Positions 1 through 37,718 of a DNA stretch of 38,681 nt are shown one piece after another. The first letter of the stretch is position 1, and every line of letters starts with the position of its first letter. The translations under genes and the position numbers were made by a program. The DNA comes from Paramecium tetraurelia (taxonomy: Eukaryota). Location: NCBI GenBank assembly GCA_000165425.1, contig CT868073.1, forward strand, positions 62,001 through 100,681. Reading direction: 5' to 3'. A model generated the notes under the pieces. It did no database searches and was not told the origin of the DNA. It saw only the letters and a list, made by a program, of their open reading frames with translations.

Positions 1-681
1 ACTATCTAATATGAAAAGATTCAAATACTCATAACTTCATCTAGATCTCGATGCAAAATATCATCTGCTTATCGTGCTTTTAAAAATTATAATCTTGCTT
101 CATCCTTATTCAACTTTTATTTAGCTGCATCGAAATTCTGGTTTTTACTCACATCCATCAAAACCGATAGCCCTACACTAGATAAGGTATTTGGATTTTA
201 TTATTCTCTATATACCTTTGCTTTTTCTGTCTACAGTTACTCATATTGTAATTTCATCTTCAAAATTTCTTCTCTTTTCTTATACATTTCTTGATTCGAT
301 ATACCCTTAGTGTTCATCAATTTTTCATTCAAAATATACTATTCTCTATAATTTTATAGGTTCCTTAAGAATTGTTATTCCTTTCCATGAGTTGCTTATC
401 TTTGAGACATCAGATTTTATAAATAATACTTCTTTTAAACTTATTCCGGAGTTAAGAATTTCATTCCTCCTCTATCCAATTAATTAATTTCTGCCTATAT
501 TTTAGCCATATCTCTTTCATATTCTCCTTATATAATATGCAATCTTCCTTAATTACGACAATTACTTATTTAATAACGAAAACATCTCCTATGCTTCTTA
601 ATCATGATTTGCTTATCTAATAGATAAATTACTCTTCTGATTTGCTTACTCTAATAAAGAATCGCTTAAAATTCTAGACAT
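1..681 (-). CDS. Hypothetical coiled-coil-rich protein, 3' end outside the window
   Basis: With code 6, ATG at 681 starts MSRILSDSLLEQ. After a probable small intron (exact site unresolved) the frame reads ...LHIIQGEYERDMAKIQAEINQLDRGGMKFLTPEQ..., rich in E/K/Q. Confidence 0.6.
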
Positions 682-867
682 TCTAATTAAAATTAATTGT
701 TTATCTCGTAAAACAAATTTTATTATTTAATTAATAAAATAATACATATATTTTTATATAAAAAATAGTACAAAATTTACCTCTTAGGAATAAATTCTGA
801 CCTTAATTTATGTACATCCATCCATTTAAAAACATTAGACTAGTTCTAGATATTTAATAATATTTTA
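682..867. promoter_or_regulatory. Short divergent intergenic region, probable bidirectional promoter
   Basis: 186 bp AT-rich spacer between head-to-head start codons at 681(-) and 868(+). No specific motif identified. Confidence 0.4.
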
Positions 868-3811: not shown

Positions 3812-4899
3812 TCAATAATTTATTGATAATGCTTATTAGGCCATTTCAGAAAAACTATCAATTGCTAATTTAGCTAATCCATTCGTTCCCCAAGTATCTC
3901 CCCATGTGTTTTCAATAACCCAAAACTATTATCCATTTTATTCACCCCACCCTATAATTTTCACTGCTTAGCCACCATGAAAATGAGGCTACCCTTCCAA
4001 AACTTAATAAATTCCATCTCGATAGATTAAAAAGTCTTTATAAACTGGGATAATAGCAACTACTGGTCCTTTATTTAGGATATCTCTTTTGATATCCTAG
4101 TATATAAACATTAATACGTCTTTATTCTATAACTAGCAATATGACTCTGCTTTATATCTCTAACAATGTCCAAGGGCATTAGTACACTCTTTAAATGTAT
4201 CATCTCCTTTAAAAGGATGACATTCATTTGTTGTTAATCCATGCTTTATAATATAATCAGCTGATTTTGTTAAATGTCCTCCTTTGCACCCCAAGTTTAA
4301 TTTACCATCGCATGACAATAAATTTTGAGCAGATAATTATTAAGTTTAATTTTATTTGCAAACTCTGTCTGAGAATGAAGAAGAAACAGCGATAGAATAA
4401 GAAGATGAACAATTTCCCTAATTGTAAACTTGGTGATTGCATTATGGATATGCTTCTTTGAAGTTGTAATATACAGGAGTTTCATCCATAAACGACAATT
4501 TGCATTTCTCTACATTTATTTGTTACGTGAAATCGTTTTTAAATAAGGTTTTTGCTTACATTAATGTGATATTCTATTGTAAATAATAATTAAACATAGA
4601 AAAAAGCATTTGGGCCTAATGTGTATGAATGGCCTTAGGAATTATGAGACTTTATTTCAGATTCATTAATTATGATGTATTCTTTTGTTTATTTAGTAAA
4701 CGATAAAAAAGAAATGATAACAAATCCAATCACAACTATTAACTTTGAAGAATTTCTTACTTGATAATATAATATGAATTCTGTAAGTGGTTATAAAATC
4801 TGGTTTAGTGGTCCTTTTCTTAATCGCTGTTTATAATAGTTTTAATTTCTCAACTTATTACTTTGTAGGACAAGGACTCGACGAACGTGGTCCACGCAT
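3812..4899 (-). CDS. Papain-family (C1A) cathepsin-B-like protein, predicted catalytically inactive, with an N-terminal membrane anchor
   Basis: Three introns (4736-4760, 4574-4595, 4097-4117) give 339 aa. Motifs: NQGNCSSSYSIA..FSDRVC, LSAQNLLSCD..GCKGG, NKGPVVA, GGQAVKIIGWG, WVIENTWGDTWG. Hydrophobic segment IHIILSIVIGFVIISFLSF follows a ~40-aa basic N-terminus. Confidence 0.9.
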
Positions 4900-8384: not shown

Positions 8385-11300
8385 ATGTTGTTTGAGAAAC
8401 TAAAAATATACAACACAAAAGAAAAGCTATTGGAAAGATTGAAAGAACTCAAGAAGGAGGAGGAATTGAAAAGAAATACTCCAATGAAAGAAAAAGTTAA
8501 ACGAACTTGTACGTAAATTTTGAGTTAATAATTTAGTTTCAACATCTCAATCATAAAGAACAACTTTGAATAGTTTTAATCGGTTGTCAACTTCCCCTAA
8601 AGTTTAATGCAATTTGGAAATTGAAAAAATTAAAATGCCTCTCACTTTTGAAAGATATCAAAATGTAACAAGGATGACAGAAATCCCTATACGTTAAAAG
8701 TTTTAATATTTTAAGTAATAAATAGATTATCAACTCCACAACCTCCTCAAAAGAGTATCCTTGAAAAATTAAATGAATAAGAGGAAGAGAAAATGATTAG
8801 AGAATTAATTGATAATTTTAAGCCAGAATTGTATGACGATATGATGGAGAATGATTAACAAGAAATTGAAAGATAAAATGATGAAGCACATACGAATTCG
8901 ATGAAACAATTTTCATATCAAGATTATAGTCCTTAAAGGATGAATATGATAAAAAAGCATCAGCATCATCACCATAAATCAAACCCATCTCACCTCAAGA
9001 ATAATCAAAAATACGAAGAGCAAAAACAGCTATACATATAATAATTGGAATATAAGGGAGATATTAATTAAGAATTAACTACTGATAGAGGAAAATATAT
9101 GAGGAAATTTCGATTGGCTAAGTAATCAATAGATATTATTTCCTTAGTAAGAATTTGAATAAAGTATCCTAAGAAGATTACAGAAAGACTATGAAACAAT
9201 TTAATAAATTAGAGGATTATGCATAATTTTATAAATAAACTCCTAATTTGTACATATAATTGAACAAAAGCTCCCATTAATAGCAAATATTTTAGAGTGG
9301 TCTAGGACTCGTTTAATAATGTAATCACATCTAAGCTGCTAATGCGTAAGCACAAATTAGATCCCCTTAATAAGTTAAAGTATTTTCTGATGCTCTCAAA
9401 ACTCAGTAATGTAAGACTATTACACATTTAAAGTTGAATCACAATAAACTTAATTCATTGAAGTACCCCTCTTGATTATATTTTATTAGAATTCAACAAT
9501 TGACAAAGTCATTCCCATAACATCTGTAGGAATTAGATTTAATGAATAATGGATTAGATTCAAAGTCTTGTTAGTTATTATCTAAATATATCTAAAAATC
9601 ATAGATAAAGAAAGTAAATTTGGAAAACAATAGAATTGGCGATATTGGAAGTAACGCATTATGCTAGGCCGTGCAGGATCACGATTATTTATTATACTTA
9701 AATTTATCCAAAAATAATTTAACAGAACATTGTTGTGTTGAACTAGCAAACTATATCAAGAAAACACAGGTTCTATTTGAATTATATCTTCATTTTAATT
9801 CAATAAATAGCGTTGGAGCTGTTAATATTTGGAAAGCATTGTATAAAAATTCTAGCGTCAAGGTCTTTGATATTTCATATAACAGAACAGCCTCTTTAGA
9901 ATGTTCTTAACAAATGGCCAAAGTAATTATTAAATAGTATCCAGAACTGATGCATATTGATATTTCATATAATGGATTTAATGAGGAACAGTCTATTGAA
10001 ATTAAAAAAGCCTTAGATTAAAATTAGAATATATATGGATTTCATTATTAGGGGAATTGCCCAAAATATGCAGTTGACTCTACTGGACATTTAAGAGATA
10101 GAATTCAAGAAGCTATAGATATCCAAAAAAAAATTGATGAATGCAAAAAAAATCCTCAAACTACTCTAAAATTAGTAGATGACAATCAAAATCCTGAATT
10201 ATAAATTTAAGAACAATAATAGCATTAATAGCAATAGCATAAAAGAATAAAAGATTTATAAACTGATTCAGAACTGTATAGGAATTTTAGATTTCGAAGA
10301 ATTTAAGGAATGAAGCCAATAAAACAAAACTATGACACTGACAGTGAATTGGATGCATGCTGGATATGTGATGGTTGGTAAGAAGTAAAATTTACTTGGA
10401 CACCTGGTAAATCAGGTGGAATGAATAATGATCCTATATTTGTTCATTTGAACTTTGAAACTTACAAACCTGTTTTAATGACACTTCATAATGGAGAATA
10501 TTCTGCTTATAGAATGTGTCCTCCAAATTTCAGAGTCACATATTTTTTCAGCAATCCTGTACTTGGGATCTAAACAACTGCAAAAAATCAGTTAATTACA
10601 TAAACTCCTCAAGAAGACGCTTTATATTCAACAAAACAATCCTTTTTATATAATGGAGATATTCTCATTGAAGGAAACAAAATGGGGTTCGTTAATGAAC
10701 TTTTTACTGAAGATAAACAGTCAATTATGGATAGATACTTTGCAAAAATCTTTAGTAAACCTAGAGAAGAAGAAAAAACCTTTGATTTGACTTAATTTCT
10801 AACCAAAACAGAAAAATTTTGGAGTTATGAAATCTCCATTTTTAAAAACTATTAACCAGACAATGATGAATTAATTGATGAATGTTTTGAATATGATTAT
10901 GGAAGTTCAAAAATTAATAAAATTATTAAGGACCCAATTGAATATAATGAGGTGAAGGAAATTATGAGAGAGTATTATCCTTATATTTTTGCAGCATATA
11001 AATTTCTAGCATCGACCCTGATTGGAGCAACAATTCCTTGTATTTCATCCAATGCCTTTTCGGACTTTTTATCAGCCACAGGAGTCATATCTGAAAAATT
11101 TAGATCTGGAGATATTGATTTAAATTTTATTGCAACATCAAATGTTAAAGATATCAATTATCCAAATGTTTATGAAAAGGCCTTAGTGAGATATTAATTA
11201 ATGGAAGTATTAGTTAGAATTGCTATTGACAAATATCTGAGAACCTAAATTTGCAAGTCAATAAAAGAGAGTTTGAGAAAAATGTTTGAAGAGGATGGAA

Positions 11301-12170
11301 TTAAATTAAAACTATAAGAAATTGATCGCAGTTAAGATTGGAGAGATATGAGATATTGGAATGAATAATGTGACATTTTATTAAGTAATTAATATAGTTA
11401 AATTTTCTATTAGAGGATAGATTACCAATGTTAAAAATGCTTTTCAAATTTACATCTAAATTAAATGCCAAACAAAAGTATTACAAACATATATGGCTAT
11501 AATTTAAAGATTTCAGGGATTTATTAAATAAATGCGATTTGTATTGTGATATTTTTGTTGAAAGGGATGCTTATCTTGCTTATCTACTAGCAATGCAGAC
11601 CTCTGTTGATGAACTTTACCTGCTAAAACATTTCTAAATGGAATTTTATGAATTTTTAGAAACTTTGGCTAGATGTGCTGAAAAATTATCACTCGTAAGA
11701 ACTATTGATTAAATGACTATTGATGATCGAAGATTGCAACCCCTATTTAAGAAATTAGATGCACTAACCTTTCTCATTTATATTAGATTGGGTGAAATTA
11801 TTAAAGCATAATTTCGTGAATCTGACGATCTTTCTGATTTTGATAAATGTATGTAAAAGACTTACGGTCAACTACCAAAACAGCCAAATCCTGATGATGA
11901 GGAAAATACTGATAAGATAACACCTTAATAAGAAGAAAAACTCATTAGAAGAACAACTTAAAACCATCGTTGTCCAACCTTTAATTACTATTGTATTATG
12001 CTTAATTCAATTTAGTCTTAACCAAATAAAAAATCAACTGGAATGACCATTTTTGCAGGTCATCAAATAAGCTATAGTAGCAGAAATCTAATTTTAAAAT
12101 AACACATTTAATTTAATCAAATGTTGTATAATATTTTAGGAACAAAGAGGAAGAATAACAACTAAAATGA
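8385..12170 (+). CDS. Large leucine-rich-repeat (RNI-like) protein, multi-exon
   Basis: LRRs such as LYLNLSKNNLTEHCCVELA, LYLHFNSINSVGA and VFDISYN at ~9500-10050, then CWICDGWQEVKF and a helical C-terminal region. Small introns include 8509-8536 and ~11993-12015; the last exon ends ...EEEQQLK* at 12170. Confidence 0.85.
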
Positions 12171-15261: not shown

Positions 15262-16314
15262 TCAAATGTTTTCTGTGTATTTTTTTACTTTAATTTCCTT
15301 TGAATTTGAATCCCAAAATATTAAAAATTCTCCGTCATTACTTAATGTCCCAAAAATATTTCCTTCACTTTTCTCACCACAATCAATTTGATATGTCTAA
15401 TCACAATCGAAGAGCTATGTGGAATATGGGGATTATTAAAATCTTAAACAATTTATGTAGTAGCCATTCTTTATTATTAATACGTTTTTCTATTTGTTGT
15501 ATTTAGATGGAAAGAAACACATACATGATTGTTCACCTCCATGAATTGGAATATTTTATGTATTGAAGTAGAGTTCTTAATTAGATTACATTTAAAGGTT
15601 GTATATCCGAAGATCGTTAGAAGAGTAAGGTACAAAAACAAAGCTTTGATTGTTTATAAATTACAATCTATAACCTCTCCGATTCAATTAGATTACCTAT
15701 TTAACTTCCCATTATTATTAATTATGTTATTTATCGATTATTAATATCTTACAATCCTAAAAACAAGTAACCAATTGATTGCCATCTTCCCTAAGTGAGC
15801 ACTCATAAATTGTACTTGAATTCTAATTTATTGTTTGAGAACAAGACCATTCAGAAGTGGCAAGTGCAAATGTAGACCAGAATTTGATTGTGCCATCTCC
15901 TGATCCACTAATAAGTAGGTTTTCTTTTATGTGATCCAATACAAGACAACTTATGAATTTGGAATGTCCCTTCAACTTCATCATGTACTTTGGACTTGGC
16001 ATAAGAATGGAGAACCAAATAATGATAGATGCATCTTAAGAACCAGAAACAAAGTTTGGTCTTTTCTTGAAAAAATTAAGGGTTGTTATCCAATCTTTAT
16101 GTTTATATATCTCTTGGATTTATTTCACTTAGCCATTTTTGAATTAGAGTATTTTAATATTTTTATATGCCGAACAAGTCAAGAGTGTATTACTATCATT
16201 AATAGCTATGGCATAGCATAATTGCTTTTAATGAATTCCATGTTCTGAAATAAGTTCATATTTATATGGCTTATTTTTTATTTAAATAGAAGCACAACAC
16301 TCTTATTGTAACAT
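15262..16314 (-). CDS. WD40-repeat protein, ~350 aa
   Basis: ATG at 16314 and TGA at 15262-15264 are in frame. Repeats include HKDWITTLNF..FVSGSQDASIIIW and GHSKFISCLVL..LISGSGDGTIKFW. Confidence 0.9.
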
Positions 16315-17091: not shown

Positions 17092-20000
17092 TCAACTAAA
17101 TGCAATATCAGTATTACGATATATATTAATTGATTAGAATTTATAATTCCAAAATACCCAATAAGAATTTATGTTGATAATGCTAAATTACACATGAAGT
17201 TATTTATATATCAAATTATTTTAAAAAATCAACTCTTAGGACATTGAGTTATTTAAATCCTTTATTTCCTTTTATTTAATTTTCCGAAAGTATTATAATC
17301 TCATTTATAATGTTATAAAAATTAGATTTATTAGTAAAATAATTATGATGGACTTCTTAGAGTCATACAGAGATTTGGGAATTAAAAGAATTGAAATTTG
17401 AGCATCAGATACTTCATTTTAAGCAAATAAGACAAAATTAAAAGAGGAATTTTCTACATTTTGAATATCTAATTCGTAATTTATTATTCCCCAATAAACC
17501 TAAGACTGGTTTATAAAAATAAAATGCGTAGTATTTACTTTTAAGGTTTCTATGTGAGAATTTTTACGATAAATTGTATCATAATATTCTCTTTCTTCTT
17601 GGAGATCATAATAATAAGTAATATTTTAGTTAAGTTATTTCAAAATTAAATAGTTCTCATCCATATAATCAGGCTTGAAATCAAAATCTAATAATGGATT
17701 CCTAATCTATTCTCTTACCTGGAAAGAACAAATAGAACCGTTCTAAATATTAATCTAGAGTTATATCATAAAGGATTAATAATGATAGCTCATAAATAGA
17801 ATAACAGTAATAATAGTTACATTCTATTTGCATTAAATTAATCCAATATTTCTTATTATAGGATTACTCTCGCCTGTAGGCAATAGATCTTAAAGTATTT
17901 TTGTGATATTATAAAAGAATTCGATGTAAATTCCATTAAGTTTGATTGTGTAAATCATTATTTCTACTTCAAAAATTAATTTATGATCCAACCTTTCTAA
18001 CCCAATAAATTAATCCACTGATAACTCAATGTATTTGATATCCAAATCATAATTATTTGAAAGGTGAATTAGACTAAAATCTTAATTCTTAATAAATATA
18101 TAGATCTATTACTATGCATTCTATAATTTAACCAAATTTTATGTTTTAATAACGTTTTCATGAAAGGGTAAACCAACTGTAAAGTTTATGATTTATACCT
18201 AGAGTTCCTTACAATTTGAATGGTCTTCTAAGATACACAAGAGTAAATGAATATGCAAATAGTCATTTAATTGACAAATCCATAGAAAATAATTTTCTGA
18301 AATCCAAAATACCTAATACAGGACATTTTCTGTATATAGTTATGTAATTTAACAAAAAATTTTGTCTTCCAAAATAATTGCTGAAAATGGATACATTAGT
18401 TACTTATTGTTATTCAGAAAGACAATATTCTTTTGTTTAATACAAAATATAAATGAATCAACGCACTCTTTAAATAGTTTAATAAATTACAAAGGTCCCT
18501 ATAATCTAATTTTATCATTATCAATAATTGTTACATTATGTATTGGACCTAAAAAAATTTCAGAAATTTTTAGTTTCAATTTTTCATTATTTTATATTAG
18601 AAGAGACACTTAATTTGATTAAGTAGATAAAAGATGACATTCATTTAAAATTAAAATGCTTAAATTGATACTATTTTCAAATTAGTAAGTTGGATTTAAT
18701 GTTAACTGATACGATTAGATCAATGTTTATTGATTGCTAACATTAATATAAATAAGCGACACTATTTCATTTAAATAATGGTACCAGATTTATTCATTAT
18801 ACAAATATAATAAAGTATTATTGATTAATTCAAAATAGACATCATTTGTTTAAATAATATTAATTAATTTGATTGTTGTGGTAGTGATAGAGTAAGTAGC
18901 TATAAAAAGAGATTGCTTGTTTTCAATTAAAATTGCTAATTTCAAAGAACTAAACTTGTACTTTAAAGGATTTGAGAATTAATATTCTTATAGAGTATAA
19001 TTGCTAAATAGATGTAATTCATATTCATCTAAATGATATAAAATTATTGAGTTCGTTTGATTTTGTACTGCCCAGAGTAAAAAGTAAGTTTTTAACCAAC
19101 TTTTAATTGTAATAATTTAGACTCCTGATAATTAAAAGCATTTAACTTCTCCTTTCAATTCATAGGCAAAAATATTTTCATATTGAATAAATTTATTAGA
19201 CCCTAATTCTTAATAATATAAAATTAATTTTGGTTAGTAAAGATATTATGAGAGGTAATTGAGACGATTTTATGAAAACTAATCTAAATATATTAATAAA
19301 GGATATTCTGAACCCTTAACATATAGAATAATTTATTCAGAGGTTTATTAAATTGTTATCATTTCCATATAAGAAGGTATTTAACTTAAGATTATTTATC
19401 CTGAAATAAGTTAGATCATTTCGATCTTCATTTTATTTATATCAATAATATAATAATCTTCTAGATATTCTAGTACTTCAAATTATTTTATATTTACACT
19501 CAATTAAATTTGGTTTTTTTAACAATTAAGGAAATATTAATTATTTTCAACTTGAAAGACTATAAAATTTTTATTTTTAATGGATAATAAAGTAATCTTA
19601 CTTTTAAATTTATATCGTTTTATTCGTTAATAACATTAGTTCTCTAGTTTTTCTTTATATTTGATACTCATTTTAACATTTCCAGTCTTATTATTATAAA
19701 ATTCAAACTCTTGTTATTGAAATTGGGTAAATGATTGAATATTAAGTTTTGCTTATTATTAATATTAGCAATTCTTTTTAATTAAGAGTGAATACTAGAC
19801 TAAATTATTCTATTGCAGCTGATTTTCATGTTGAATTTTGAAACACTTTAATAATTCTTATTGGCCGTGTTTTTCAAGTCTCTTAAGTAAATATACAAAT
19901 TTTTATTTAGGTTTTACATAACTACTTATTGGAAAATATCTATAGAATTATGCCTATACTTTGAACTTATCTATTTAATAAAACATGTTATCTTATTCTA

Positions 20001-21075
20001 AAAAAAATAGTGATGAATTTAAAATATTATATTTTTGATATAGATGTTCATCAATCCTTATATTTAATTCATTTTAATTTTGTAAAAAGAGAAAACCAGA
20101 AAAAAAATGAATTTAATCAGTATTAAAAGAATTATCTAAGATTATTTCTTTGTTTATGATCTAAACCGGTTATAAATTTGTCTCATTTTTATAAGTTATG
20201 AGAAGAACATTTTAACAATTTTTAGAAAGTATTATTTTCAATATTTGATTTTCACTTTTCTATATGTTATTAAGAATTGCTTAGTCAGACTCCCAAATAA
20301 CTTAAATATAATTATTTGCCTCAACAAGATAAAGAGTCAATGAATTTGTTAAGCAAATTTGTACATGATCTATTTTAGTAAATATCCCAAGAGTTCGAAT
20401 GTAATTATTCGTTTTAGATTCCATTATTATTTTTAGTTAATCATTATTTATTTCGAAAAGCTTCCATTCCAAACAATTAACAAATGCAATTATAAATTAA
20501 TTTTTATCAAAGAGCTTGAATTGTTTCTTTTTGCATTTATCCTGTATTTAAATAGAAACATCATACTCAAATATCAGAGTCACATCGCCTAATAGACTTA
20601 CTTAATATTGTTTTAAAGTAAATTGGGTCATGCAAAATAATAATAGGTTACCATTATCTAGTTAATAAATTTCATCACAGGAGTCTTCATCAGTAATATT
20701 TGTTTTTATCTTTATGCTTTCTTAATTGTTTTCTTACTTTTCATAATTTAATTTATCAATTTTGATACATGTTATATAATAGTTAAGTTCTAGAAACAAT
20801 TAACAAATTAGTTTCTTCAAAGTCACCTCTTTACCTAAGGATTTAAATATTCTTGTTTAAATTGGAACAACTTCGGAAGAAATAGTAAATAGTTTTTATA
20901 CAATTTTATTATCAATATGCTTTAAATTGTAATAATCTTCCTCATTTCCTTCTAATATAAAACAATCTTAAACCACTTAGTAACATGTTATTATGGGTTG
21001 TATTTGCTAAATTTCGCATGGATTTGAATTTATCTAAAATATCTAAACTCCAAAGACGATGATAATTAACAACAT
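17092..21075 (-). CDS. Large predicted type I membrane/surface protein (~1,300 aa), unknown function
   Basis: Signal-peptide-like start MLLIIIVFGVQIFQINS. Near the C-terminus, LFAQNEVS is followed by hydrophobic IIIILLINLIFITL and a basic tail. Both ends are in the same frame. The middle was not checked codon by codon and the stop position is approximate. Confidence 0.65.
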
Positions 21076-22714: not shown

Positions 22715-23963
22715 ATGATTCAAGGAGATCAAGACTTTGAATGTCATTTAGTTGAGATGCAACTGAATGACCAAGAATATCAAAATCTAGTTGACAAAGA
22801 GGAGACATTTATTTAAATTAACAAATAAGATAGTGGGTTTTGTAATTATCTTAGAAATGATATTTTAAACGATAAAACTAAATTAAAGTAACTATTAAAC
22901 AGAATTAATAATCAGTGGAATTAGAATTTTATGGTAGAACTTAAAAGAGAAGAAATCTTCACTTTGATTATATTAATGTTCCTTAATTAAATAAATAGAA
23001 AACAATAGTTTGGAGGATTTTATATAATAAATATGGAAAATTTAAAAAGAACTTAAATTAGACTTTGTACTCAAAAGATGCGATGCATAGAGAATTACTT
23101 ACGTTTATTCTATAGGAATAAAGACAATCTTTTAGAGAGTTCATTTGATAATAATGAAAAAGTGCAATTTAAAAATTAAGTTGTTAAATTCATAAAAAAT
23201 ATACAAGAAGTTGAATTTTCATTTAATGAAGGTGACTAAAAGAGCAAATTAAATATATCTATTAATGTAACCAATCAACGAAATGAAGATTAAAAGAATT
23301 CAACTGTTGTTGACTTTGCAGATCAGAACATCGGAGGGTTAACATTAGATAGTTATAATTGTGCTTAGGAGGAAGTAGACAATTATTATTTTATTTTAGA
23401 TTCTTATGCTTATTTTTCCAGAAGCTCTAGTAACTATGATATTTATTCCACCTATGAAAGATAATGAAGCTGTTTTAATCACTAATCTAAAGAAGTTCTC
23501 TAAATATTCTGGATATGAGTAATCTTTCATCTGCAAAGAATAAGAAGATTTAGAAAAGAATTTCTTTAATATGCTTGTAATTATTATTAATACTTAGGCT
23601 ATTGATGCAAAACCATTTAGTAGAAATATAGCATAGTTTAAGAAACAAAATTTAGACAGAGAAATACGGAAATGTTACTCAGGATTCTCATTAGCTTTAA
23701 AATACTAACCGAATAATGATATTTCAACAGGACGATGGGGATGTGGTATATTTGGAGGAAATCAGTATCTGAAAACAATGATTCAATTGATTTGTTTTGC
23801 TTAAGCAAAATATGAAACAGAAAATAGTACAGCAAAATTGATAATCAATGCTTCCAATACTCATAGTCTAATAACTTTTGTAAATGATCTGAAGCAATAT
23901 GAATAAATAGTAAATTTACAGAACCTTACAATATTGATTTAAGAGTTATCATAGCGTTTTTGA
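22715..23963 (+). CDS. PARG: Poly(ADP-ribose) glycohydrolase, compact catalytic-domain-only form, 400 aa
   Basis: Motifs VDFADQNIGGLTLDSYNCAQEEILMLIFPE (signature loop with QEE), FSKYSGY, AIDA, LDREIRKCYSGF and STGRWGCGIFGGN. Introns at 23375-23399 and 23577-23597. Confidence 0.92.
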
Positions 23964-24173: not shown

Positions 24174-24566
24174 NNNNNNNNNNNNNNNNNNNNNNNNNNN
24201 NNNNNNNNNNNNNNNNNNNNNNNNNNNNNNNNNNNNNNNNNNNNNNNNNNNNNNNNNNNNNNNNNNNNNNNNNNNNNNNNNNNNNNNNNNNNNNNNNNNN
24301 NNNNNNNNNNNNNNNNNNNNNNNNNNNNNNNNNNNNNNNNNNNNNNNNNNNNNNNNNNNNNNNNNNNNNNNNNNNNNNNNNNNNNNNNNNNNNNNNNNNN
24401 NNNNNNNNNNNNNNNNNNNNNNNNNNNNNNNNNNNNNNNNNNNNNNNNNNNNNNNNNNNNNNNNNNNNNNNNNNNNNNNNNNNNNNNNNNNNNNNNNNNN
24501 NNNNNNNNNNNNNNNNNNNNNNNNNNNNNNNNNNNNNNNNNNNNNNNNNNNNNNNNNNNNNNNNNN
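24174..24566. other. Assembly gap (N run)
   Basis: Run of N. Confidence 1.
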
Positions 24567-26216: not shown

Positions 26217-29200
26217 TCATTTGATTGCTCCTTTCTCAATAAATAATTTTTCAAGGTTTTCATTTTCATTATTTTGAATTATTGATTAATTAATTCTACA
26301 ATAAAATGCTTCTATAAGCGAACTTTTTGTAAATTTATAATAACAAATTGGTAGTTTATAGTTTTTTAATGTTTGCTTATCAATCTAATATAATAGTATT
26401 GATCCATCATCCATTCCAATTATGAATTGCTTTTTAGAAGGAGTAAATTATAAATCCATTATTCTAGAACTGAAATTGTTCAAAGTGTACTTTAATTCAT
26501 TTTTTTCTGTATCAAAAATCTTTAAATCCTCTCTGTATTTGAAAGTACAAAAATATTTTGGTTTCTCATTTTATTAATTTAGAGTAGAAAAATCAAAACC
26601 CTATTTGTCTTCAATAACCCCAATTTCTGTAAAATCAGAAATGGTTTAATGAATTAATTCTCCAGATTTACTAAAAATCCTAATTGTTTATGAATCTAAA
26701 AATTAAAATGATAGTGCTTCAACTGGTTTTGTTAGATTAATTTTAACTTTTATAGAGTTCTTATCAACAATATCCCACAACCTTATTGTGTGATTTCTTC
26801 CTAAAGATAATAGCATGTTCCCATTTTATGAAAAAGCTAAAATCTAAGATTAATATTTTTATTTAAATGAGTTTCCTTCTAATTTTGCAATCAATTAACT
26901 TTTTTTTGATGATATATCATACAAATTAAAATAGGTATCAAATTAGATTGCAATCAAATTATTGGCTTCATTAAATCCAGCTGAATAATTATTTAATATA
27001 GATGGATCATCAAATGTTTCTTCTAATATTCTAACCTCTCCTAATTGAAAAACGATCATTGCACTCAAAAATCCATACATTCCATAATATTTTTAAGATA
27101 GAACTCCATATTCTTCATCTTTTACAGGGAAAATTTATAGACTCTTTGTATCATAAAAAGATAAATTATCAATTGTATAATCAAGTTTTAGATTAAACAA
27201 CTCTTAAACTTTTATCAAAACAAATCTATCATTCACGTCCCATATATAAATCTTATTATCAATATAACATGAGAATAATAATTTGCCATTACCAGAAAAA
27301 ACCAATGACATCACTTCTTTATTACTTACTTATGGTTCCTATAATATAGATTCTTTTTATTTTTTATCTATCGACCATATGATTATAGAATCTTGATCTT
27401 AAATTGCCAATTTTAAAGTATTTTCACAAATAGCTACATATTTTACTTTATTAACTTATATCCCTTGCATTTATTCATTCTTCAATTCAGATTAATTTAT
27501 TTAAATTACTTCTAATGGATTTGTTTTTATGAGTATATTTTTTGATAGAATAAATGATCTTGATGGAAAGCTCAGGTTTTCTTAAAATATTAATTTTTTA
27601 TTTTATTTACAAACCTAATCTAGATTTATAATCAATAACTTAGGATTTTTGTACTTACAGAAAAGTTGAGTTTACTCAATTTTCAATGCCAGATCACTTT
27701 CAGATAAACATGAAACTACATAGAAATGTTCGATAATGTATTTTGTATTTAATTTCCAAATATGGATTCCTAGTTAATCATCAAGTGCAGTAAAATATTG
27801 ACAGTTAGGTGAAAAGCAAACTTAAGTTGGAAGTCTTCGACCTTTTAAAAGAGTATCGATTTTTTTCAGTTCTATTAAGTCCCATCTGATGATTTCAAAA
27901 TTTGAAATGGATATCAATTAAAAACCATCTGGGGATATGCATAATGATTTAACTGAATCGGAATGACCATCCATTTCAAATTATTACTTTAAAGCTTTCA
28001 AATTCCATAACTTTATTACTTTTTCACTTACTTAAGCTATTATTCCTCTTTTTGAGACTTGAATAATTTCTATAGTTGGAGTATAACTTTTGAACATAGA
28101 TAGCAATTTACAAGTTTTGGCATCCCATAATTTAATTACTAAGTCAGAATAACTTGATATAAAATAAAGTCCATCCTAAGAAAATATAACCTGTTTCAAT
28201 TTTTGAATTGTGGCATCTTCAATCACTTCAAAGAATTAAATTATTTTGTTCGTTTCTAAATCAATAAGAGCTGATTTTTATTTTTATTTGTCATCTTTAT
28301 AGCAATAATAAGATTCGATTGCAATTAATTAAGTCTCTTGGGGATTGAGTGTGAAAAAATTAAAATTCTTTAATTTTAAATCAATTTATTTTAGAATCAC
28401 AGCAGAATTAATCTCAAATTCAGTATATATTGACTCTTATGAAACTATTATGAACAAATTACTATTATTTTAAGAAAAGTTCTGATAATAACAATTTTTT
28501 AATTCATCTCCTTTTAATGTTTTTTCGATTCTAATAGCATCTTATAGTGATTGAAAACAAATATGATTTTCATAACCAATACCTATAAATAATTAATCCT
28601 AATCGAATATTAAATCTGTTGATGTATTACCCTTATCAATTTAGATCAATTAAATTTAGTCTAATATTGATAAATTTAGCAATATACATTATATTTCGCT
28701 ATAAATACAAATTTATTATCTTTTTTCTAAAAATACCATTTTTTGTGGATTATTGGGCAATTAGATATTCACCAACTTTTCTATTGATTAAGAATCTTTT
28801 ATATCATATAATACCAACGAATTGTTATCTAATCCAATCACTATTTAATTTTAACTTATAAAACAAATAGAGAGACAACAACAATTTTATTCCAATTTAT
28901 GTATTATGTTATTAGTTTTTAGATGCTTGATAAATGCTCCAGAAATTGTGGCTACAGCCAAAAGAGAGGAATCATTAGAAAATTAGAAGTCCATGCAGTT
29001 AGTGGTAATGTATAAATTATTTGGACTGATTTATTTTTCAATATTTATAATCTCGAAACCATCTGAATTTCCCATCGCTATAAATTTTTAATTTTATGCT
29101 ACTGATAAGCAATAAGAAGAAGTACTCGAAAATTAAAATTAATGTTACATATAGATGTTCTCTTCATCTTGAATGTTTAATTGAAAAGCAACATAATTAG

Positions 29201-32200
29201 ATAAAATAATACTTTAGGTATTTAAATATAGGATTTTTTGAATATTCTGCAAATTGCTTAATCTAATTTTTTTTTCAATTTGAATCGATTTTTCAAATAT
29301 TTTCCATATCCTTAGAATTTCTATCTCACTTAATGATGCCATAATACTGCCATCTTAACTAAAACCTATATCTAACAATATTTCTTCAATTTCTAAACTT
29401 TAAATCAAACTACATTCAATTGAATTCAATAACTTGATTTCTTTGGATTATTTAAATTACAAAGACACAGCAAATTATGAATTTGGCCAAAAACAAATTT
29501 TATTGGACTCTATTGGCAATTACATTTATATTTCAACTTATTTTTAATCCAAATTTATGATATTCCAAAAAATAATTGTTTTATCTAAACTGCACGATAC
29601 CATTTTTGTTCCATCAATTGAGAATCCAAAATCTAAAACCTAATTTGTATGAGCTTCTAGTCTTATAATTAGTCTCTGTTTTTATAAATCCCATAGACAA
29701 ATAGTACTATCTTTGCTAGCTGAACCTAAAACTAAATTATCATTTCTGAATTTTAAGCATAAAATATCCTCAGTTTATTCGACAAACTTTGAGAGCATCC
29801 TTATTTGATGAAGGTTATTTAAGCCCCATATTTGGATTTAGAGGACTTCCTTTTCACTGTTTTTCTAATTGCAGCAAGCTAATATTTCAGAATTTGGAGA
29901 TATCTCAATTAAATAAATTTTTAATTAAGTATCTATTCTAAAAGAGTCTTATTGATCAAGTATCTATTATACATCATATAACTTCAGTGAATTCTTTTTA
30001 GACATTGAAGCAATCATTTTACTGTCAAACGAAAATGATATTTAATTTGTAGTAACTTATTAATCTAAAGAAAATAACAAATAAACCTGATATAGGTTCT
30101 CAATATTCAAGAAATCTAATCTCTTGTTTCCTCCAATTACTAAGACTTTAGAATCTTTTGAAAATACGATTGCGTTGATAGGTTATTACTATTATTGAAA
30201 CTCTATTATTTCTTAGATATCTTTTATATTGTTAGCATTCCAAATTTTAATTTTAGTGCCTCCTGTAGCTAAAAGTTAAGAATCAGAAGAAATTGCAATA
30301 CACTTTATTGAATCTTTATTCTTTCCTTTTGATAGATATTTTTATTATTATAATTTTAGCAGATTTTGCATTTGCCAAAAATATATTTCTTCTGAACTTG
30401 ATTTTGTTGCTAAATATTTACCATCTTAAGATAAATAAAGATTATGGTAACGATAATTTTATAATAATTACTATCCCATTTAACTCAAATCGTTTGAATT
30501 AAAGCAGTATATGCTATTTTAAGTAAGACATACTAAAAAATTGTTACTTTTAAGGAAAGTTTACAATTTTTCATTTTATGGTAAGCATACACTCTTAGGT
30601 TCCCCATCGCCTTATAACTTCCAGAGAGTTATAACTCCGTCTTCACTGCTTGATATTAAATTATTACCATCATCACTGAAAGCAATTTAATTGATTTTTG
30701 ATTTATGCCCAAATAATGAAGGTTTCTCTTTGCAAATTATATTTTTCCAAGTTGAATTCTCTATAGTTGCACAATTAAAATTACATGAATCGATCTCAAC
30801 ATTATTAAATTATGTATGGTTCAAATTACACTTATAAAAACTGATTCCATTTAATTTTGTATCTGCTAGGCATATGTTACTTAAATCAAAATTTTCAAAA
30901 TAAGCCCTTAGATAGCTTAAAAGATAAAGTGAATTAGAAGCAGATCTAATAAATTTACGATCGGAATCTAACTTTGATAATGAGACTATTTATATTAGTT
31001 TATTTTTAATTTCTTCTATCTTTAATACTTTTGGTTTTAATAAATCTAAAGTGCCTGAATAATGTTCTTATGATAGATTAAATTAATCCTTATTAAAGCT
31101 GCTTTTATATAATGCCATTTCATCAACTATTAGTTTCTCCTTAATAAAGATTCTCGTAATCAAATTCAGAAGATAGTAAGCCACAAAATATTCCTAAATG
31201 GATTTATGATTGAATGCATAAATACCACTTTTAGAATTAATCAACATACTCTTTCTTAAAATAGCTTTGTATTCAAAATCATCTTAATTTTCACTAAAAT
31301 ATGCATCTTCCCAAGAGGCTTCAACTCTCCTCTCTTCTTCTGCTTATTATATATGTAATTTTCCTTTTTATTTATAATTTACTTGTGTAATTTATCTTTA
31401 GGACATATCTAAAGCCAAATAAATAGAAAAGTCTAATAAGTCTGATAAAAAACTTTCGTGTGAAAGACTTTTCCCTAAATCTTTCAATTTTTATAATTAC
31501 TAATTGTGATAGAAATCTACAAATATTTCATAAAAATCAAAAGCAGTAAATTAATTTAAATTAAAAGCCGAAACAATAAAGTTGGCATCTTGCCTCACTT
31601 TAAAGTGTTTGTTCGAAATTAACGTAGTATCATTAATGTATTCTATAGAATTAGCTAAAGAAAATGATTCAAAAAAGTTTTAATTATCTAAATCTTCTAT
31701 AATTTAAGTAAATTATTCTAATATTACAAGTTCTAATTTTTGCTCATTAGGATTGATTTTCATATAATTTTACTCCTCAGTGTTCTAAACTTAATTAATT
31801 TTCCTTTTACAATATTTTTCAATCATATCTTTCGATTTCTAAGCTTCTGTTTTCAAAATCATAAAGTTTTTTTACAATTCAACTCTTATTATATTTGATT
31901 GTGAGTAATATTATAACATTTTTGGTAATATGTAAACAATTATTTCCATCATAAAAGGAGTGCCCATTAAATGAAATATATTAATATTATAAATCACTTT
32001 TAAAAATCTTTGTTCTCCCCATAACTAAAGCAGTTCCTTTTTTAAAGAAACCATTTAATTTGATGATAAAAAATTAAAAAATTCAACTTATTATATTTTC
32101 TATAAGAACCTTTCAACGTCCTAAGTCTAAAATAAGACTTCAGAATTTTGTTGTTGTTAAATAATAGAATATATTGTGCTTTCTAATTGGCTCCAAACCA

Positions 32201-35200
32201 ATCTAAATTCATCTAAAGAAAAGTTCTAGCCTTTTAATTACTTAAGAAATTCATAAAACTTCTTAATCGTCCTTTTAATGCTTATTTAAACGTATATTTT
32301 AATATATTAAAAACTTTATTCTTGACTAAATGGTAATATTTCAACCTCTTTTAGAGTTTCAATACTCTAACCATAAAACCATGTTTAATATCCGATTGAA
32401 TTTAATATTTCTTCTCTCGTAGTAATAATAATTTTAACAGATTACCCTGATGTTTATATATTGAGATCCTAAATCAGTCTATTTGTTTGGTAAAGGTTTG
32501 TTCCAATACATTTAAATTTCATCTCATCATAGCTATCCAATATAATTACTACTTTTAGATTTCCATTTATTATTGCATCCTTAAATTCTCTTACTTGAAT
32601 TTTATCAAAGTTATAATTTTCAGATTCGAGGGCTTGCTCAATTAAATTGTGATTAGGATCTTTTAAAGAAGGGAGTGACACATAAATTGGAATCCAATTA
32701 GGCCAAATCATATCGCAACTCCATATTAATTCTTCTATATTACGGGATGCTCTACTTTTCCCTGAACCTGCTTTGCCTTTAATTAACATAATATCCTTAT
32801 TCTTTTCATAATCACTCCATAAGAATTCGTTTACTTCTCCATCAAAATTATCATATCGATTTGCTATTAAAAATGTGATGAATTCACCATTACTATTAGT
32901 CTTCTTATTTCCAGTTATAGGATCATAATCCTGAGTTGTAATCTATATATGAACTTAATCTAACTGTTACTCGTGCATTGATATTTAAACCTTTTGTTTT
33001 CGTATATTTAACAACTCTTAAAAATTCTTCCCTCTTAATCTTCTTACATCATCTTAAACCCGTTTTACGCTTTCTAAAACCTAATCGATAGAAGATTTAA
33101 TATTTTTCAAGTCTTTACTAATTTCTCTTAAAAATATTAAACTAATGTCTAATCTTTATGACATATCTGTAATATTATCCAAATATATTTCATAATTATC
33201 ATAGGCTTGTTAGAGTTTTATTTTCATTTCATCTTAATTTTCACTAAGTAATACCTAGGTTTCTAGTTATTATATCTATCTTAATCTTGATTGCATTTCC
33301 TTTTTCAATTCATCTGAGAAATTCTGTAAATCTTTAGAGAACAACCCCTTCTACATCATTATCATTTCTTCATTTTTCAGAAGATTTCTAACACTTGGAT
33401 GTTTCTCAATTATCCAAATTTGTCTTAATAAATTGTCACAAAATCCTGATATAGTTTATTCTTAAACTATTGATTACATCTTAATTAAATTGAATACTAG
33501 TAATTCCCTAACTTTATATGAAGAATTTTGAAACATATCAGACAATCCTTCTTTGTAATTCATCTTCATTGCATTTGTAAATTGCATAATCATATCTTAT
33601 ATTTTATCAACCTTTGCATCTTTATCTTAGACTTCCTAATTTTCTAAAAAGAGAGTATTAAAGTTAATCATTTATGTAATTACAGGAACTTATTCTAAAT
33701 TAGGTTGACTTTGTAGCTTTATCATAAAATCCTCATCTAAAATAAGTTGTTCATCTTTATTAATCTTTTAACAACATTCTAAAGTTTATTTCACTAAATC
33801 AAGGAATGCTTGATTTAAACTTTCTTTAAAGGCATTCTTTAAATTACTGAGTAATTATAAATTTAATTATTAATTTTAACAACTTGCATCAAGAAGATGT
33901 TATTAAAATATTCGCTTTAACATTTTGGATTTATTAATTAAACTGTCTATCATTTAAAATACTCTATCAAAATCAAATAAATCTTTCATTTACAACTTCA
34001 ATATTTCGGCTTGGTGTAATTCTACTTGATCTTTGGTTGATTATTTAATATCTTGTTTTTTATCAATTTGATTTATTAACTAAAGCTGATTATCTAATAA
34101 TGTAATAATTTCTTAATATATAACATTTCTATCTTAAACTAAACCAATTAATTCTAATTTCATTTGAATTTTCGATAATAATAATGTATAATGAACTTTG
34201 ATTTGTTCTTACCAATCCTTTTTTTATATTTCAATTTTTTCTTTAATAATTTGATTTGATATTTTATTGAAATCTATTAATATATCATTTGTAAATTCTA
34301 CATTTTGATATTTTTTGAATACTATTTACAACTTTTCCTTCTTATCGATTATTTACGATTTGATGTATTCGTTTATATCTTTTTCGTTTTAAAATTACCT
34401 TTCAACTTCAAAATTTGTATTTGCAAACACCCCTTTTAATGAAGTTTCTAAAGATATAATTTTTCTTTGATGTAATTTAAGAATCATTATTAATCCTTTG
34501 TAAATGTTTAAATTAGAATAAATCATCATCAAAATTTTTCTTATATCACTCTCTTATTCAATTTATAACGTATCGTTTAACATAGCTTAAAAATGCACCT
34601 GAATTTCATTAACCATAAATAATATCAAATTTGGATTAAGTAGTTTAGTTATCTATTTTGCTATATTTTTTTAAGAAATATGTTCCTTCATAAAACCTTT
34701 TAATTATTTCTACCCTAAAATTGATAAAACATTTCTCTTTATGGTCGACACTTATACAACAAAATTATCTAAATAATTGTTGATATTATTAATAATAATG
34801 ATATTTTAATTTATTTAAGGTTCAAAATATTATTCCAATTAAAGATCATTGATAATTAATTCATCATGGGAAATAGTTGTAAATTAACAAATTTATATCC
34901 AAAACCTAGATACTAGTTATAAATTATTTAAAAATTCTATCATATGTTTGTTTTCAACTTCTTAAATAGCTGCTAATATTTATAGCTTTTATACATTTTG
35001 TTTCTCGTCCAAATTTTCAACATTATTTAAAACTATTTTTTAAATAATAGAATTTGTCAAAATTTCTTTATTTATTAATAAATTTATCTCATTGGTTAAG
35101 CATTGTAATAAGAAACTGGATTATTTTATTTAACGCATTAGAAACATTATTTCCTATCTGTTTATTTTGATTTCTATTTAATTATTTTTTGATAGCAAGG

Positions 35201-36695
35201 CATTATGCTAACTCACTTATTATTTAACAGCTTCTAAATTACTTATTATCTGCTCTTTAGAAGTTCTTAATTAGGTTATTAATGCTTTCAGTATTTCTAA
35301 GTTTGATTAATTTGTTAACAGTTGAATAAAAAGTTCCAAATGATTTAATTACTCTCCTTTTTTTACATTAAAATTAAAATTGATATAGTTTGGTAATAGT
35401 TAAATTTCCTCTTAATTATGAATCAAATACTCTTAAAATAATTTCAATGCTCTAAACTTTTTAAAGATTATAATTTTTTCTTCAAAAATCTTTAGTTTGG
35501 CAACAAATTTTTTATATGGCAATTAAATTATTGCATTTTCATTTATTAGTAATTCCCAAACTTCTTAATCAGAGGTTCCTTATTAAGTAAAACTTGCTAT
35601 TTAATTCTTTTGGATTATAGGTCTGAAACACATTAGATCAGATATCAAATTGATCCAACAATAATGTAACATCCAATCCTATGAAAATTTGATGTACTTT
35701 AAGTACGCATCTTAGATTGTAATAATAATATTCTGAATGGAGTATCCTAATGTTAATTAACTCAATATTGACCATTTGAGGTTTTCGAAAAAATAATAAA
35801 TTTCATATATTTTTAGAGGATTTTATATTTGCTTATCATAGAAATTCAAAAGTAAAAGTTTTCCTCCTTCAATTATTGAATTTATTAATTCGTCACTAGG
35901 TTTTAGTTAGGAGATTGAAGACATCAACCCACACATAATAGAGATTGCTAATTCTTAACTTTTTCCAGAGTTTGTCCTACAATGAACAATGCAAGTCTTA
36001 ATCATTTAAAGCTCAAATGCCCACTCCATTGATCCAAAATTTTATTTGCTTCTACTGTAATTTGTGATTCAATTTCAGATATAATATCCCAATAATTTTT
36101 TTTTTAAATCTTCCTTCATATACCTTTCTTCATTCTTTAATTAATATGAAAATATTATTCTAAATAGATCATTACAAATTTAGAGCAGAGAGTAAAATAG
36201 GTAACCAGAAAGCTTGAGGTAAGTAGTTAATTATTTCAGTAGTTATTCAACCATTTTTTCTATTAATTCATAATTGTGTGAGAGTAAAGATTCTTCTTGA
36301 CAGATTATATGAAATTGCTCTTTATGATTTTAAAACCACTAAAATGCTGAAAGCACTTCATCTTAATACATTTTATCTTAAAACCTTAATGATTTCTCTA
36401 TAATGATGTTAGTAAATTGTTATAAATCAGATGCAAAATTCTCTTCAAGTTAGTTTTATCTATAAGTAAAATCAGAATAGACTTTCTTTGTTCCACAGCA
36501 TCCCCCACCTCTTAATTGAATATATGAAGTCTAATTTTGGATATTGAATTGATAATTTGAGGATTCAAATTTTTTTGGATTTTGAAACTGTTACCTATTT
36601 TCTTTTTTGCTTTTATTCTGTAAAGTCAAAGCTAATAAATTAATCTTACTTATAAATTTACTAGGCTTTGCTATTTATTAGTAAAGTAAGCACAT
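26217..36695 (-). CDS. Giant NLR-like STAND protein: N-terminal helical region, coiled coil, NACHT-like NTPase, pentapeptide repeats, many WD40 repeats (~3,490 codons)
   Basis: Walker A GKAGSGKS at 32754-32777 and Walker B VVIILDSYDE at ~32523-32552. Pentapeptide-like FDLSNICLADTKLNGISFYKCNLNHTQF at ~30760-30900. WD40 repeats such as GHKSKINQIAFSDDGNNLISSSEDGVITLW span ~30720-26400. The same frame was seen at each point checked, apart from a local disruption at ~36020-36095. The start codon is tentative. Confidence 0.9.
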
Positions 36696-36841: not shown

Positions 36842-37718
36842 NNNNNNNNNNNNNNNNNNNNNNNNNNNNNNNNNNNNNNNNNNNNNNNNNNNNNNNNNNN
36901 NNNNNNNNNNNNNNNNNNNNNNNNNNNNNNNNNNNNNNNNNNNNNNNNNNNNNNNNNNNNNNNNNNNNNNNNNNNNNNNNNNNNNNNNNNNNNNNNNNNN
37001 NNNNNNNNNNNNNNNNNNNNNNNNNNNNNNNNNNNNNNNNNNNNNNNNNNNNNNNNNNNNNNNNNNNNNNNNNNNNNNNNNNNNNNNNNNNNNNNNNNNN
37101 NNNNNNNNNNNNNNNNNNNNNNNNNNNNNNNNNNNNNNNNNNNNNNNNNNNNNNNNNNNNNNNNNNNNNNNNNNNNNNNNNNNNNNNNNNNNNNNNNNNN
37201 NNNNNNNNNNNNNNNNNNNNNNNNNNNNNNNNNNNNNNNNNNNNNNNNNNNNNNNNNNNNNNNNNNNNNNNNNNNNNNNNNNNNNNNNNNNNNNNNNNNN
37301 NNNNNNNNNNNNNNNNNNNNNNNNNNNNNNNNNNNNNNNNNNNNNNNNNNNNNNNNNNNNNNNNNNNNNNNNNNNNNNNNNNNNNNNNNNNNNNNNNNNN
37401 NNNNNNNNNNNNNNNNNNNNNNNNNNNNNNNNNNNNNNNNNNNNNNNNNNNNNNNNNNNNNNNNNNNNNNNNNNNNNNNNNNNNNNNNNNNNNNNNNNNN
37501 NNNNNNNNNNNNNNNNNNNNNNNNNNNNNNNNNNNNNNNNNNNNNNNNNNNNNNNNNNNNNNNNNNNNNNNNNNNNNNNNNNNNNNNNNNNNNNNNNNNN
37601 NNNNNNNNNNNNNNNNNNNNNNNNNNNNNNNNNNNNNNNNNNNNNNNNNNNNNNNNNNNNNNNNNNNNNNNNNNNNNNNNNNNNNNNNNNNNNNNNNNNN
37701 NNNNNNNNNNNNNNNNNN
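36842..37718. other. Assembly gap (N run)
   Basis: Run of N. Confidence 1.

Follow-up and report, generated by a model that had tools for sequence, protein, structure and literature searches.

A conserved LRGG-Gly-Cys island near the N-terminus of Paramecium NACHT-WD40 proteins and a possible propeptide cut that would unmask a lipid anchor

The stretch of DNA analysed here, called the window below, comprises 38,681 nt of the Paramecium tetraurelia genome (contig CT868073.1, positions 62,001 to 100,681 of the forward strand), and its minus strand carries a gene whose product, as judged from the NACHT region with a Walker A motif and the WD40 repeats in its sequence, is a member of the NACHT-WD40 STAND (NLR-like) class. 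The element on which we focus lies near the N-terminus of this product. The minus strand at 36515..36483 reads TTAAGAGGTGGGGGATGCTGTGGAACAAAGAAA, which with genetic code 6 is translated into LRGGGCCGTKK, directly preceded by SYIQ, just as an earlier note on this DNA had read it. The first four residues equal the tail of ubiquitin, and the residues after them resemble an N-myristoylation and palmitoylation signal that would be masked by the 60-residue leader upstream. Comparison with related proteins gives good support to the LRGG-Gly-Cys island as a conserved feature of the sequence, and the mechanism that we propose for it, a cut after LRGG which would expose the acylation signal, is unproven.

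The gene and its reading frame

The peptide LRGGGCCGTKK constitutes residues 61-71 of an open reading frame (ORF) of 206 aa, denoted by P0001, which starts with the ATG at 36695 and ends with the TGA at 36075 on the minus strand. LRGG is thus at residues 61-64 of P0001, and it is at residues 51-54 of P0027, the public 196-aa model of the same P. tetraurelia ORF, named 'uncharacterized protein', where a 30-nt intron in the leader is spliced out. It is noted that the length of this intron is a multiple of three and that it contains no stop, so that the frame is kept if the intron is retained, with P0027 being without SKFISKINLLA relative to the ORF. The annotated start of the octaurelia orthologue, P0005, falls within the stretch that is equivalent to the intron, and the intron call in P0027 is therefore doubtful.

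The ORF of P0001 and the giant ORF at 36029..26217 share one frame, with two TGA codons and nothing else between them. Of the 19 runs that cover the stretch, the DNA run X1 was taken, and the window was compared with its contig. Relative to the window, the X1 contig has 1-nt deletions at 36083, 36036 and 36019 and substitutions at 36020, 36033, 36101 and 36116, plus two more at 35858 and 35943, and when these differences are applied, 264 stop-free codons run from 36695 to 35900 across the junction. The homologues of other P. aurelia species also cross the junction between the two ORFs uninterrupted. By these sequence comparisons the real gene is one ORF of about 3480 aa, and the earlier note was right in that the motif is located some 60 residues inside the giant NACHT-WD40 frame. 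In the public annotation the one gene is given as two models, P0027 (196 aa) and P0024 (3262 aa), because of the 1-nt differences of the window at 36019..36116; this cluster of mismatches is probably an error of the reference assembly, or else a strain-specific frameshift. An intron of 69 nt (GT..AG, 36127..36059) that would join both ORFs was considered and dropped, as the homologues and X1 read straight through. When 52 family N-termini were compared by tblastn with the window, the P0001 locus was the sole match. Three RNA-seq runs labelled P. tetraurelia gave 2 reads on the stretch (X20, at 35856-35972), 0 reads (X21) and 0 reads (X22), and are uninformative on the 5' end, the splicing and the expression of the gene.

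Conservation of the motif and of the residues after it

The family set was collected from three word-index searches, one exhaustive phmmer search and two cluster members, giving 55 proteins, among which P0027 represents the same locus as P0001, leaving n = 54. The species named in the set are P. tetraurelia, P. octaurelia, P. pentaurelia, P. primaurelia and P. sonneborni, that is, five species of the P. aurelia complex. In 43 of the 54 proteins the pattern [LI]RG[GC]G occurs within the first 400 residues, and in 42 of these 43 it is exactly LRGGG; it should be borne in mind that the 43 sequences are a mixture of orthologues and paralogues and are not independent, so that such counts are inflated by shared ancestry. 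Eight of the 11 remaining models start 3' of the site (P0024, P0030, P0031, P0033, P0034, P0038, P0042 and P0054), and the other three cover the site in changed form, reading AGGGC in P0035, EVVDAAE in P0009 and KWRRLLF in P0041. The last two look like out-of-frame readings of the Arg-Gly-Gly-Gly-Cys codons, with the models probably being mis-spliced or frameshifted there. The 54 proteins together comprise 114,013 residues, in which no further LRGG is present past residue 400, and the count expected from composition is 0.14 over 87,658 residues (calculated for an earlier set of 43 proteins).

In an alignment of 33 of the sequences (A1), the members of which have 24-71% identity to P0001, the invariant columns within P0001 are R62, G63, G65, W120 and F121 and no others, while conservation is at least 90% at L61, G64 and C66. 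In a maximum-likelihood (ML) tree calculated from the 200 residues 3' of the motif, there are two deep clades, the branch between which has a length of 1.85 changes per site and support 100/100, and LRGGG is present in both of them. The contrast between the invariant six-residue island and its flanks, which have diverged to chance level, is real in spite of the shared ancestry, and the expectation in the earlier note that the motif might be conserved despite divergent leaders is answered positively, across orthologues as well as deep paralogues. When P0001 was compared by phmmer with 1.84 billion representatives, 21 proteins were obtained at E<=0.001, ten of which were checked and are all from Paramecium aurelia species; no relative from another genus turned up at this threshold. 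In a metagenome scan with P0001, 304 stretches matched the pattern and 0 of them were confirmed as relatives. As far as the searched databases go, the N-terminal module seems to be confined to the P. aurelia complex.

The conservation also bears on where translation starts. In the frame of P0001, Met codons are present at residues 1, 109, 148 and 193, with Met1 being the sole in-frame ATG 5' of the motif and a TGA lying in the same frame 14 codons further up. Because the conserved protein sequence begins at LRGG, with no Met between the motif and the conserved domain, translation must start upstream of the motif. The conserved columns F87, I98 and K101 and a confidently predicted helix from residue 87 on precede Met109, and the true start is thus not downstream of the motif, a concern that the earlier note had raised. 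It could nevertheless be argued that the leader is never in the protein, with a hidden intron joining an ATG directly to the Gly codons (giving Met-Gly) or with a downstream start being used. The local gene models are indeed shaky, as the gene is split in two and carries a doubtful in-frame leader intron, P0009 and P0041 seem to have lost the frame at the motif, and the RNA reads on the stretch are as few as given above. However, LRGG is conserved as protein and is thus translated. Introns of Paramecium are 20-35 nt long, and because the 34 bases preceding the sole AG inside the LRGG codons contain no GT, an intron of this size cannot end inside these codons. Moreover, all 20 of the long models that are free of splits and frameshifts have an ATG in frame upstream of the motif, and a Met-Gly start is found in 0 of the 54 family proteins. 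We thus consider such a gene-model artefact very unlikely.

For the analysis of the residues after Gly-Gly, positions were counted from the third Gly of LRGGG, and all 3056 Gly residues in the family proteins were taken as the background. Position 1 is Gly in 43/43, and a Cys is present somewhere in positions 2-5, also in 43/43, compared with 7.9% in the background. Position 5 is Ser or Thr in 30/43 (background 10.2%), and a basic residue occurs in positions 6-8 in 31/43. The pattern applied, which is like PROSITE PS00008, has a small uncharged residue at position 2, Ser/Thr or a small residue at position 5 and no Pro at position 6. This pattern is matched in 33/43, compared with 23.6% in the background, so that the fit to an N-myristoylation signal which the earlier note had seen in one sequence holds far above background in the family. 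A cut after LRGG would leave Gly as the first residue in 43/43, while a cut after LRGGG would leave Cys in 39/43 and Ser or Gly in 4/43, and for this reason the former cut fits the sequences better. Furthermore, in 32 of 33 proteins the third Gly and the conserved xWF are 47-61 residues apart, with 54-56 being the most usual spacing.

These residue statistics bear on two other explanations. One is that LRGGGC works uncut, as a docking or substrate site of a palmitoyl-transferase or as a protein-binding motif, the match with the ubiquitin tail being a coincidence. This explanation would account for the Cys that follows the third Gly at a distance of at most four residues in 43/43; it agrees with the disordered surroundings, which are usual for linear motifs, and with the 10/43 proteins that fall outside the myristoylation pattern; and no cleaving enzyme needs to be invented for it. 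It leaves unexplained, however, why L, R, G and G are conserved (R62 and G63 invariant, L61 and G64 at least 90%), why Ser/Thr is enriched at position 5 (30/43 versus 10%), and why the length upstream is free, from 7 to 162 residues, when the spacing downstream is fixed. We therefore regard it as unlikely, although with an appreciable chance of being right. The other explanation is self-cleavage at Gly/Cys by an N-to-S acyl shift, of the Hint/intein-like or Ntn-hydrolase type, where the Cys after GGG in 39/43 would be the nucleophile; a short propeptide before a nucleophilic Cys is typical of such enzymes. Here, by contrast, the Cys is followed in the predicted model by about 20 residues of coil and then by helices, rather than by a beta-rich Hint or Ntn fold, Cys is replaced by Ser or Gly in 4/43, and no Pfam family is found in P0001 at E<=0.01. 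Ubiquitin-like genes with intein-like domains are known from ciliates. Self-cleavage is hence extremely improbable. Note also that a mitochondrial presequence, a bacterial lipobox and Ntn/Hint autoprocessing were each rejected as candidates on the logic of the sequence and the helical fold.

The leader and its proposed removal

In the 43 motif proteins the leaders are 7, 7, 7, 8 and 9 residues long, then 11 residues in nine of them, and then from 21 to 162 residues. The leaders of 7-11 residues thus make up 14/43, and in one clade of the ML tree, which we call the short-leader clade, 12 of the 17 members have leaders of this length. When the leaders are aligned on the motif, the best agreement in any column is 9/24. 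The leaders of the four closest pairs can be aligned with no more than one gap and have an identity of 0.50-0.74, compared with 0.82-0.91 for the helical domain, and in more distant pairs the identity of the leaders falls to about 0.2-0.3. The 22 residues 3' of the motif diverge at a rate similar to that of the leader. Because the closest pairs align with at most one gap, the frame of the leader is kept, as is expected for translated sequence, with the sequence itself being barely constrained. Taken together, the variable length (7-162), the low identity and the fixed downstream spacing suggest that the leaders behave like propeptides.

The AlphaFold model of P0001, calculated with the family alignment, shows residues 1-86 to be all coil, with a predicted local distance difference test (pLDDT) score of 41-54. 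A ubiquitin-family Pfam match is absent from P0001-P0004 at E<=10, and a phmmer search of P0001 residues 1-71 against PDB at E<=10 gave 2 unrelated matches and no ubiquitin. A beta-grasp ubiquitin-like fold is thus not found in the leader by Pfam, by PDB phmmer or in the AlphaFold model, which is without strands, and the impression recorded in the earlier note that the leader does not look like ubiquitin is borne out. The idea that the tail of the leader resembles the end of ubiquitin itself was likewise dropped, having received no support from these three sources.

These data also bear on the explanation that the leader is a relic of an ancestral ubiquitin-X fusion, the body of which has decayed, while host deubiquitinases (DUBs) still clip the tail and the Gly-Cys has no lipid role. 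In favour of this, the tail agrees with ubiquitin in all of LRGG, a leader length of 50-60 residues is frequent, and natural fusion precursors of ubiquitin or ubiquitin-like proteins (Ub/Ubl) are cut at di-Gly (PMC8013793). Nevertheless, the leader carries no ubiquitin signal in the searches and the strandless model just described, the short-leader clade has leaders of 7-11 residues (12/17), and with a decayed body the fold-dependent recognition by DUBs would be lost, whereupon the selection on LRGG would lapse. In addition, no reason would be left for the conservation of Gly, Cys and Ser/Thr behind the site. Such a relic is thus quite improbable.

We propose a model of the processing pathway as follows. 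The gene would give rise to the pro-form of a giant NACHT-WD40 (NLR-like STAND) protein, in which the leader (60 residues here and 7-162 in relatives) would be a disposable N-terminal propeptide. An endopeptidase that reads the linear tail L-R-G-G, of the ubiquitin or NEDD8 type, would cut after Gly64, the Gly65 of the new terminus G-C-C-G-T-K-K would then be N-myristoylated post-translationally by N-myristoyltransferase, and Cys66/67 would be S-palmitoylated, giving a dual lipid anchor. Being carried on a flexible tail of about 20 residues before the helical N-terminal domain, the anchor would place the receptor on a membrane. The cutting enzyme is likely no classical DUB that depends on the ubiquitin fold and would be more like the proteases that read LXGG linearly. 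The papain-like protease of coronaviruses and the adenovirus protease, which are viral enzymes, cut after (L/I/M)-X-G-G without a ubiquitin fold, and theirs is the enzymology that the short disordered leaders here would require. We know of no linear-LXGG protease in Paramecium, and no search for one was made. The cut would be a constitutive or host-regulated maturation, since the site is invariant in every paralogue. This model, where a tail-specific peptidase cuts the propeptide off at LRGG and so unmasks the myristoyl/palmitoyl anchor, is put forward tentatively, with a probability that we judge to fall a little short of even.

In this model each conserved position would have a role, with L, R, G and G forming the cleavage site and Gly, Cys and Ser/Thr forming the acylation signal. 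Moreover, because the leader, the motif and the linker are all predicted to be disordered, ahead of a helical domain that is predicted with confidence, the motif would be accessible.

The model can be compared with known systems. In AvrPphB, ORF4 and NopT, embedded sites having Gly at P1', Ser at P5' and a Cys are exposed by proteolysis, whereupon eukaryotic enzymes attach myristate and palmitate to them (PMC2708883). The layout is the same here, as the counts for Gly, Cys and Ser/Thr at position 5 (43/43, 43/43 and 30/43) indicate. By contrast, those proteins are bacterial papain-like proteases that cut themselves, while here the protein is a host NACHT-WD40 protein in which Pfam shows no protease domain, the site is LRGG, and the case is known from sequence. 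In BID, PAK2 and huntingtin, a cryptic N-terminal Gly is reported to be exposed by a caspase and then modified by N-myristoyltransferase (PMC4200515, PMC9880554, PMC11492065), the site thus being that of an apoptotic caspase, whereas what lies directly N-terminal to the cryptic Gly here is LRGG, a match to a known protease-recognised tail that is kept across a gene family. SDE2, FAU and TUG are natural proteins that are cut by DUBs at an internal di-Gly with release of the functional C-terminal part (PMC8013793). Like these Ub/Ubl fusion precursors, and like the ubiquitin-ribosomal protein fusions, the family has Leu-Arg-Gly-Gly at the junction (LRGGG in 42/43); unlike them, it has in place of a folded beta-grasp domain a disordered and unrelated leader that goes down to 7 residues.

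RPS5, SUMM2 and related plant CNLs are reported to be anchored to membranes by N-myristoylation and S-acylation at their extreme N-terminus (PMC11467418, PMC13043302). These have a canonical Met-Gly start and are modified co-translationally, while the Gly here is masked by the leader and LRGG, and the plant CNLs (NB-ARC-LRR) and the NACHT-WD40 proteins are independent NLR-like lineages. With respect to the canonical Met-Gly-Cys anchor, the family thus lacks the Met-Gly (0/54) and has the post-Gly consensus (33/43) with a nearby Cys (43/43). Taken as a whole, the family resembles both protease-unmasked acylation proteins and Ub/Ubl fusion precursors and is a member of neither class. It has no protease domain by Pfam, no ubiquitin fold and no Met-Gly start.

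Several points weigh against the proposed cut and acylation. Ordinary DUBs need the ubiquitin body, and because the leader has none, with just 7-11 residues in 14/43, an additional peptidase must be assumed; the ordinary deubiquitinase that the earlier note had named as the cutter is, with such short and disordered leaders and no ubiquitin body, unsupported. The presence and the specificity of an N-myristoyltransferase in Paramecium are an assumption. The PS00008-like pattern is missed by 10/43, and in the short-leader clade position 5 is Phe or Trp in several proteins, examples being GCGSFKM, GCGTFRM and GCGSWKT. The RNA runs give the 2, 0 and 0 reads mentioned above, and the expression of the protein, like its cleavage and acylation, is presumed. 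Finally, in human cells a Gly exposed off the ribosome from a ubiquitin fusion favoured degradation via the Gly/N-degron over myristoylation, for the one reporter tested, MIC19(NT)-GFP (PMC8013793).

By contrast with maturation, the motif could be a tripwire, that is, a decoy of the ubiquitin tail that is cut solely by a DUB-like, Ulp-like or LXGG protease of a symbiont, pathogen or virus, with a lipid anchor or a Gly degron being unmasked and the receptor being activated. The architecture is NLR-like and the N-terminal leaders are fast-evolving, both of which would agree with this, and a pathogen DUB would hardly be able to evade a decoy that copies the invariant tail of ubiquitin. There is also a likeness to NLRP1/CARD8, where the N-terminal region, also of fast evolution, is cut by a protease and the new N-terminal Gly matters, pathogen proteases activating NLRP1 in this way (PMC7857732). 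The site in NLRP1, however, mimics viral polyprotein sites, lies in a rapidly evolving region, is variable among hosts and leads to degradation (PMC7857732), while here the site is invariant and identical in the paralogues of both deep clades, with no diversity of specificity, and a lipidation signal is next to it. Moreover, the ubiquitin fold is a requirement of most DUB effectors of bacteria as well, and the window offers no link of the gene to infection. By analogy, then, the invariant site looks more like constitutive maturation than a fast-evolving tripwire of the NLRP1 type, and we consider the tripwire improbable. A broader version of the idea, in which the whole family would use a mimic of the ubiquitin C-terminus as a switch, with a ubiquitin-tail protease of the host or of bacteria or viruses turning a soluble pro-receptor into a lipidated membrane form, is in our estimate also rather improbable. 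In this version, lipidation would depend on the 'deubiquitination' of a leader that is no ubiquitin, by which a ciliate could, if the motif is a tripwire, sense the DUB activity of a pathogen.

The unmasking of a lipid anchor by proteolysis is known from a few bacterial effectors and from caspase substrates. What would be new, if the proposed maturation is true, is a ubiquitin-tail site without a ubiquitin fold, present across an expanded family of ciliate NLR-like receptors. It would imply a peptidase for linear LRGG in a free-living eukaryote, would tie processing of the Ubl type to lipidation, and would provide the first handle on the role and the cell location of the large and unstudied NACHT-WD40 repertoire of Paramecium. 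In the literature covered, namely open-access papers and bioRxiv, we found no description of an LRGG-masked acylation site or of this Paramecium family.

The remainder of the protein and its neighbourhood

The features of the gene are collected in Table 1. After the linker, the AlphaFold model of P0001 has helices at residues 87-205, the pLDDT exceeding 90 in the greater part of residues 87-190, and this domain holds W120 and F121. A Foldseek search of the model against PDB gave no fold match at E<=0.001, with generic helical repeats only.

Table 1. Features of the gene in the window (positions are those of the window; residues are those of P0001 unless stated otherwise)
Feature	Position	Strand	Remarks
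Leader, residues 1-60 (Met1-Gln60)	36516..36695	-	poorly conserved; predicted disordered
Annotated intron in leader	36632..36661	-	30 nt, GTA...TAG, in public model P0027
LRGG, residues 61-64	36504..36515	-	same as the last four residues of ubiquitin; proposed cut after Gly64
GCCGTKK, residues 65-71	36483..36503	-	proposed new N-terminus: Gly65 N-myristate, Cys-Cys S-palmitate, Thr at position 5, Lys at 6-7
Flexible linker, residues 72-86	36438..36482	-	coil, pLDDT about 48; between motif and first helix
Start of conserved all-helical N-terminal domain, residues 87-206	36078..36437	-	curtailed in window by local frameshifts
Cluster of mismatches between window and X1	36019..36116	.	98 nt; 7/9 differences, namely three 1-nt indels and four substitutions
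Giant ORF	26217..36029	-	3270 aa and stop; about 1080 aa helical, then NACHT, pentapeptide repeats, WD40 propellers
NACHT NTPase region	32295..32807	-	Walker A GKAGSGKS at 32777..32754
Pentapeptide-repeat stretch between NACHT and WD40	30738..30905	-	PF13599, E 1.1e-5, under curated cut-off
WD40 beta-propeller region, about 1500 aa	26220..30731	-	PF00400

Residues 1-1099 of the giant ORF are predicted by AlphaFold to be almost entirely long helices, with a mean pLDDT of 69.5, and in this part no Pfam family was found and no PDB fold was matched by Foldseek at E<=0.001, again with generic helical repeats only. The about 1080 residues from the motif to the NACHT region (window 32733-36029, minus strand), with their very long predicted helices, are the putative output module of the NLR-like protein. 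For the NACHT region there is a partial match to PF05729 with E 1.7e-4 and 21.9 bits, which is under the cut-off of 26.7 because the cut of the query split the domain; PF05729 is precomputed for P0024, the window's own model, and for many homologues. The pentapeptide stretch at 30738-30905 is an unusual linker for a STAND protein. For the WD40 region, PF00400 is matched with E 2.8e-50 and 167 bits, compared with a cut-off of 27, and many propeller families are matched from residue about 1767 on.

Runs of N, representing assembly gaps, are present at 24174-24566 and 36842-37718 of the window. Because the latter run begins 147 nt upstream of the start codon of the gene, the promoter region and the upstream neighbour are unreadable. 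Elsewhere in the window, an ORF of 1327 aa at 17095-21075 (minus strand) has no Pfam family, an ORF with weak LRR matches is located at 9542-11713 (plus strand), and an ORF with a weak match to the PARG helical domain is located at 22715-23464 (plus strand). A small WD40 protein is encoded at 15265-16314 (minus strand) and a papain-family C1 peptidase (E 5.8e-41) at 3815-4666 (minus strand), and an Argonaute/Piwi gene with ArgoN, PAZ and Piwi domains (Piwi E 1.3e-56) lies at 607-3192 (plus strand).

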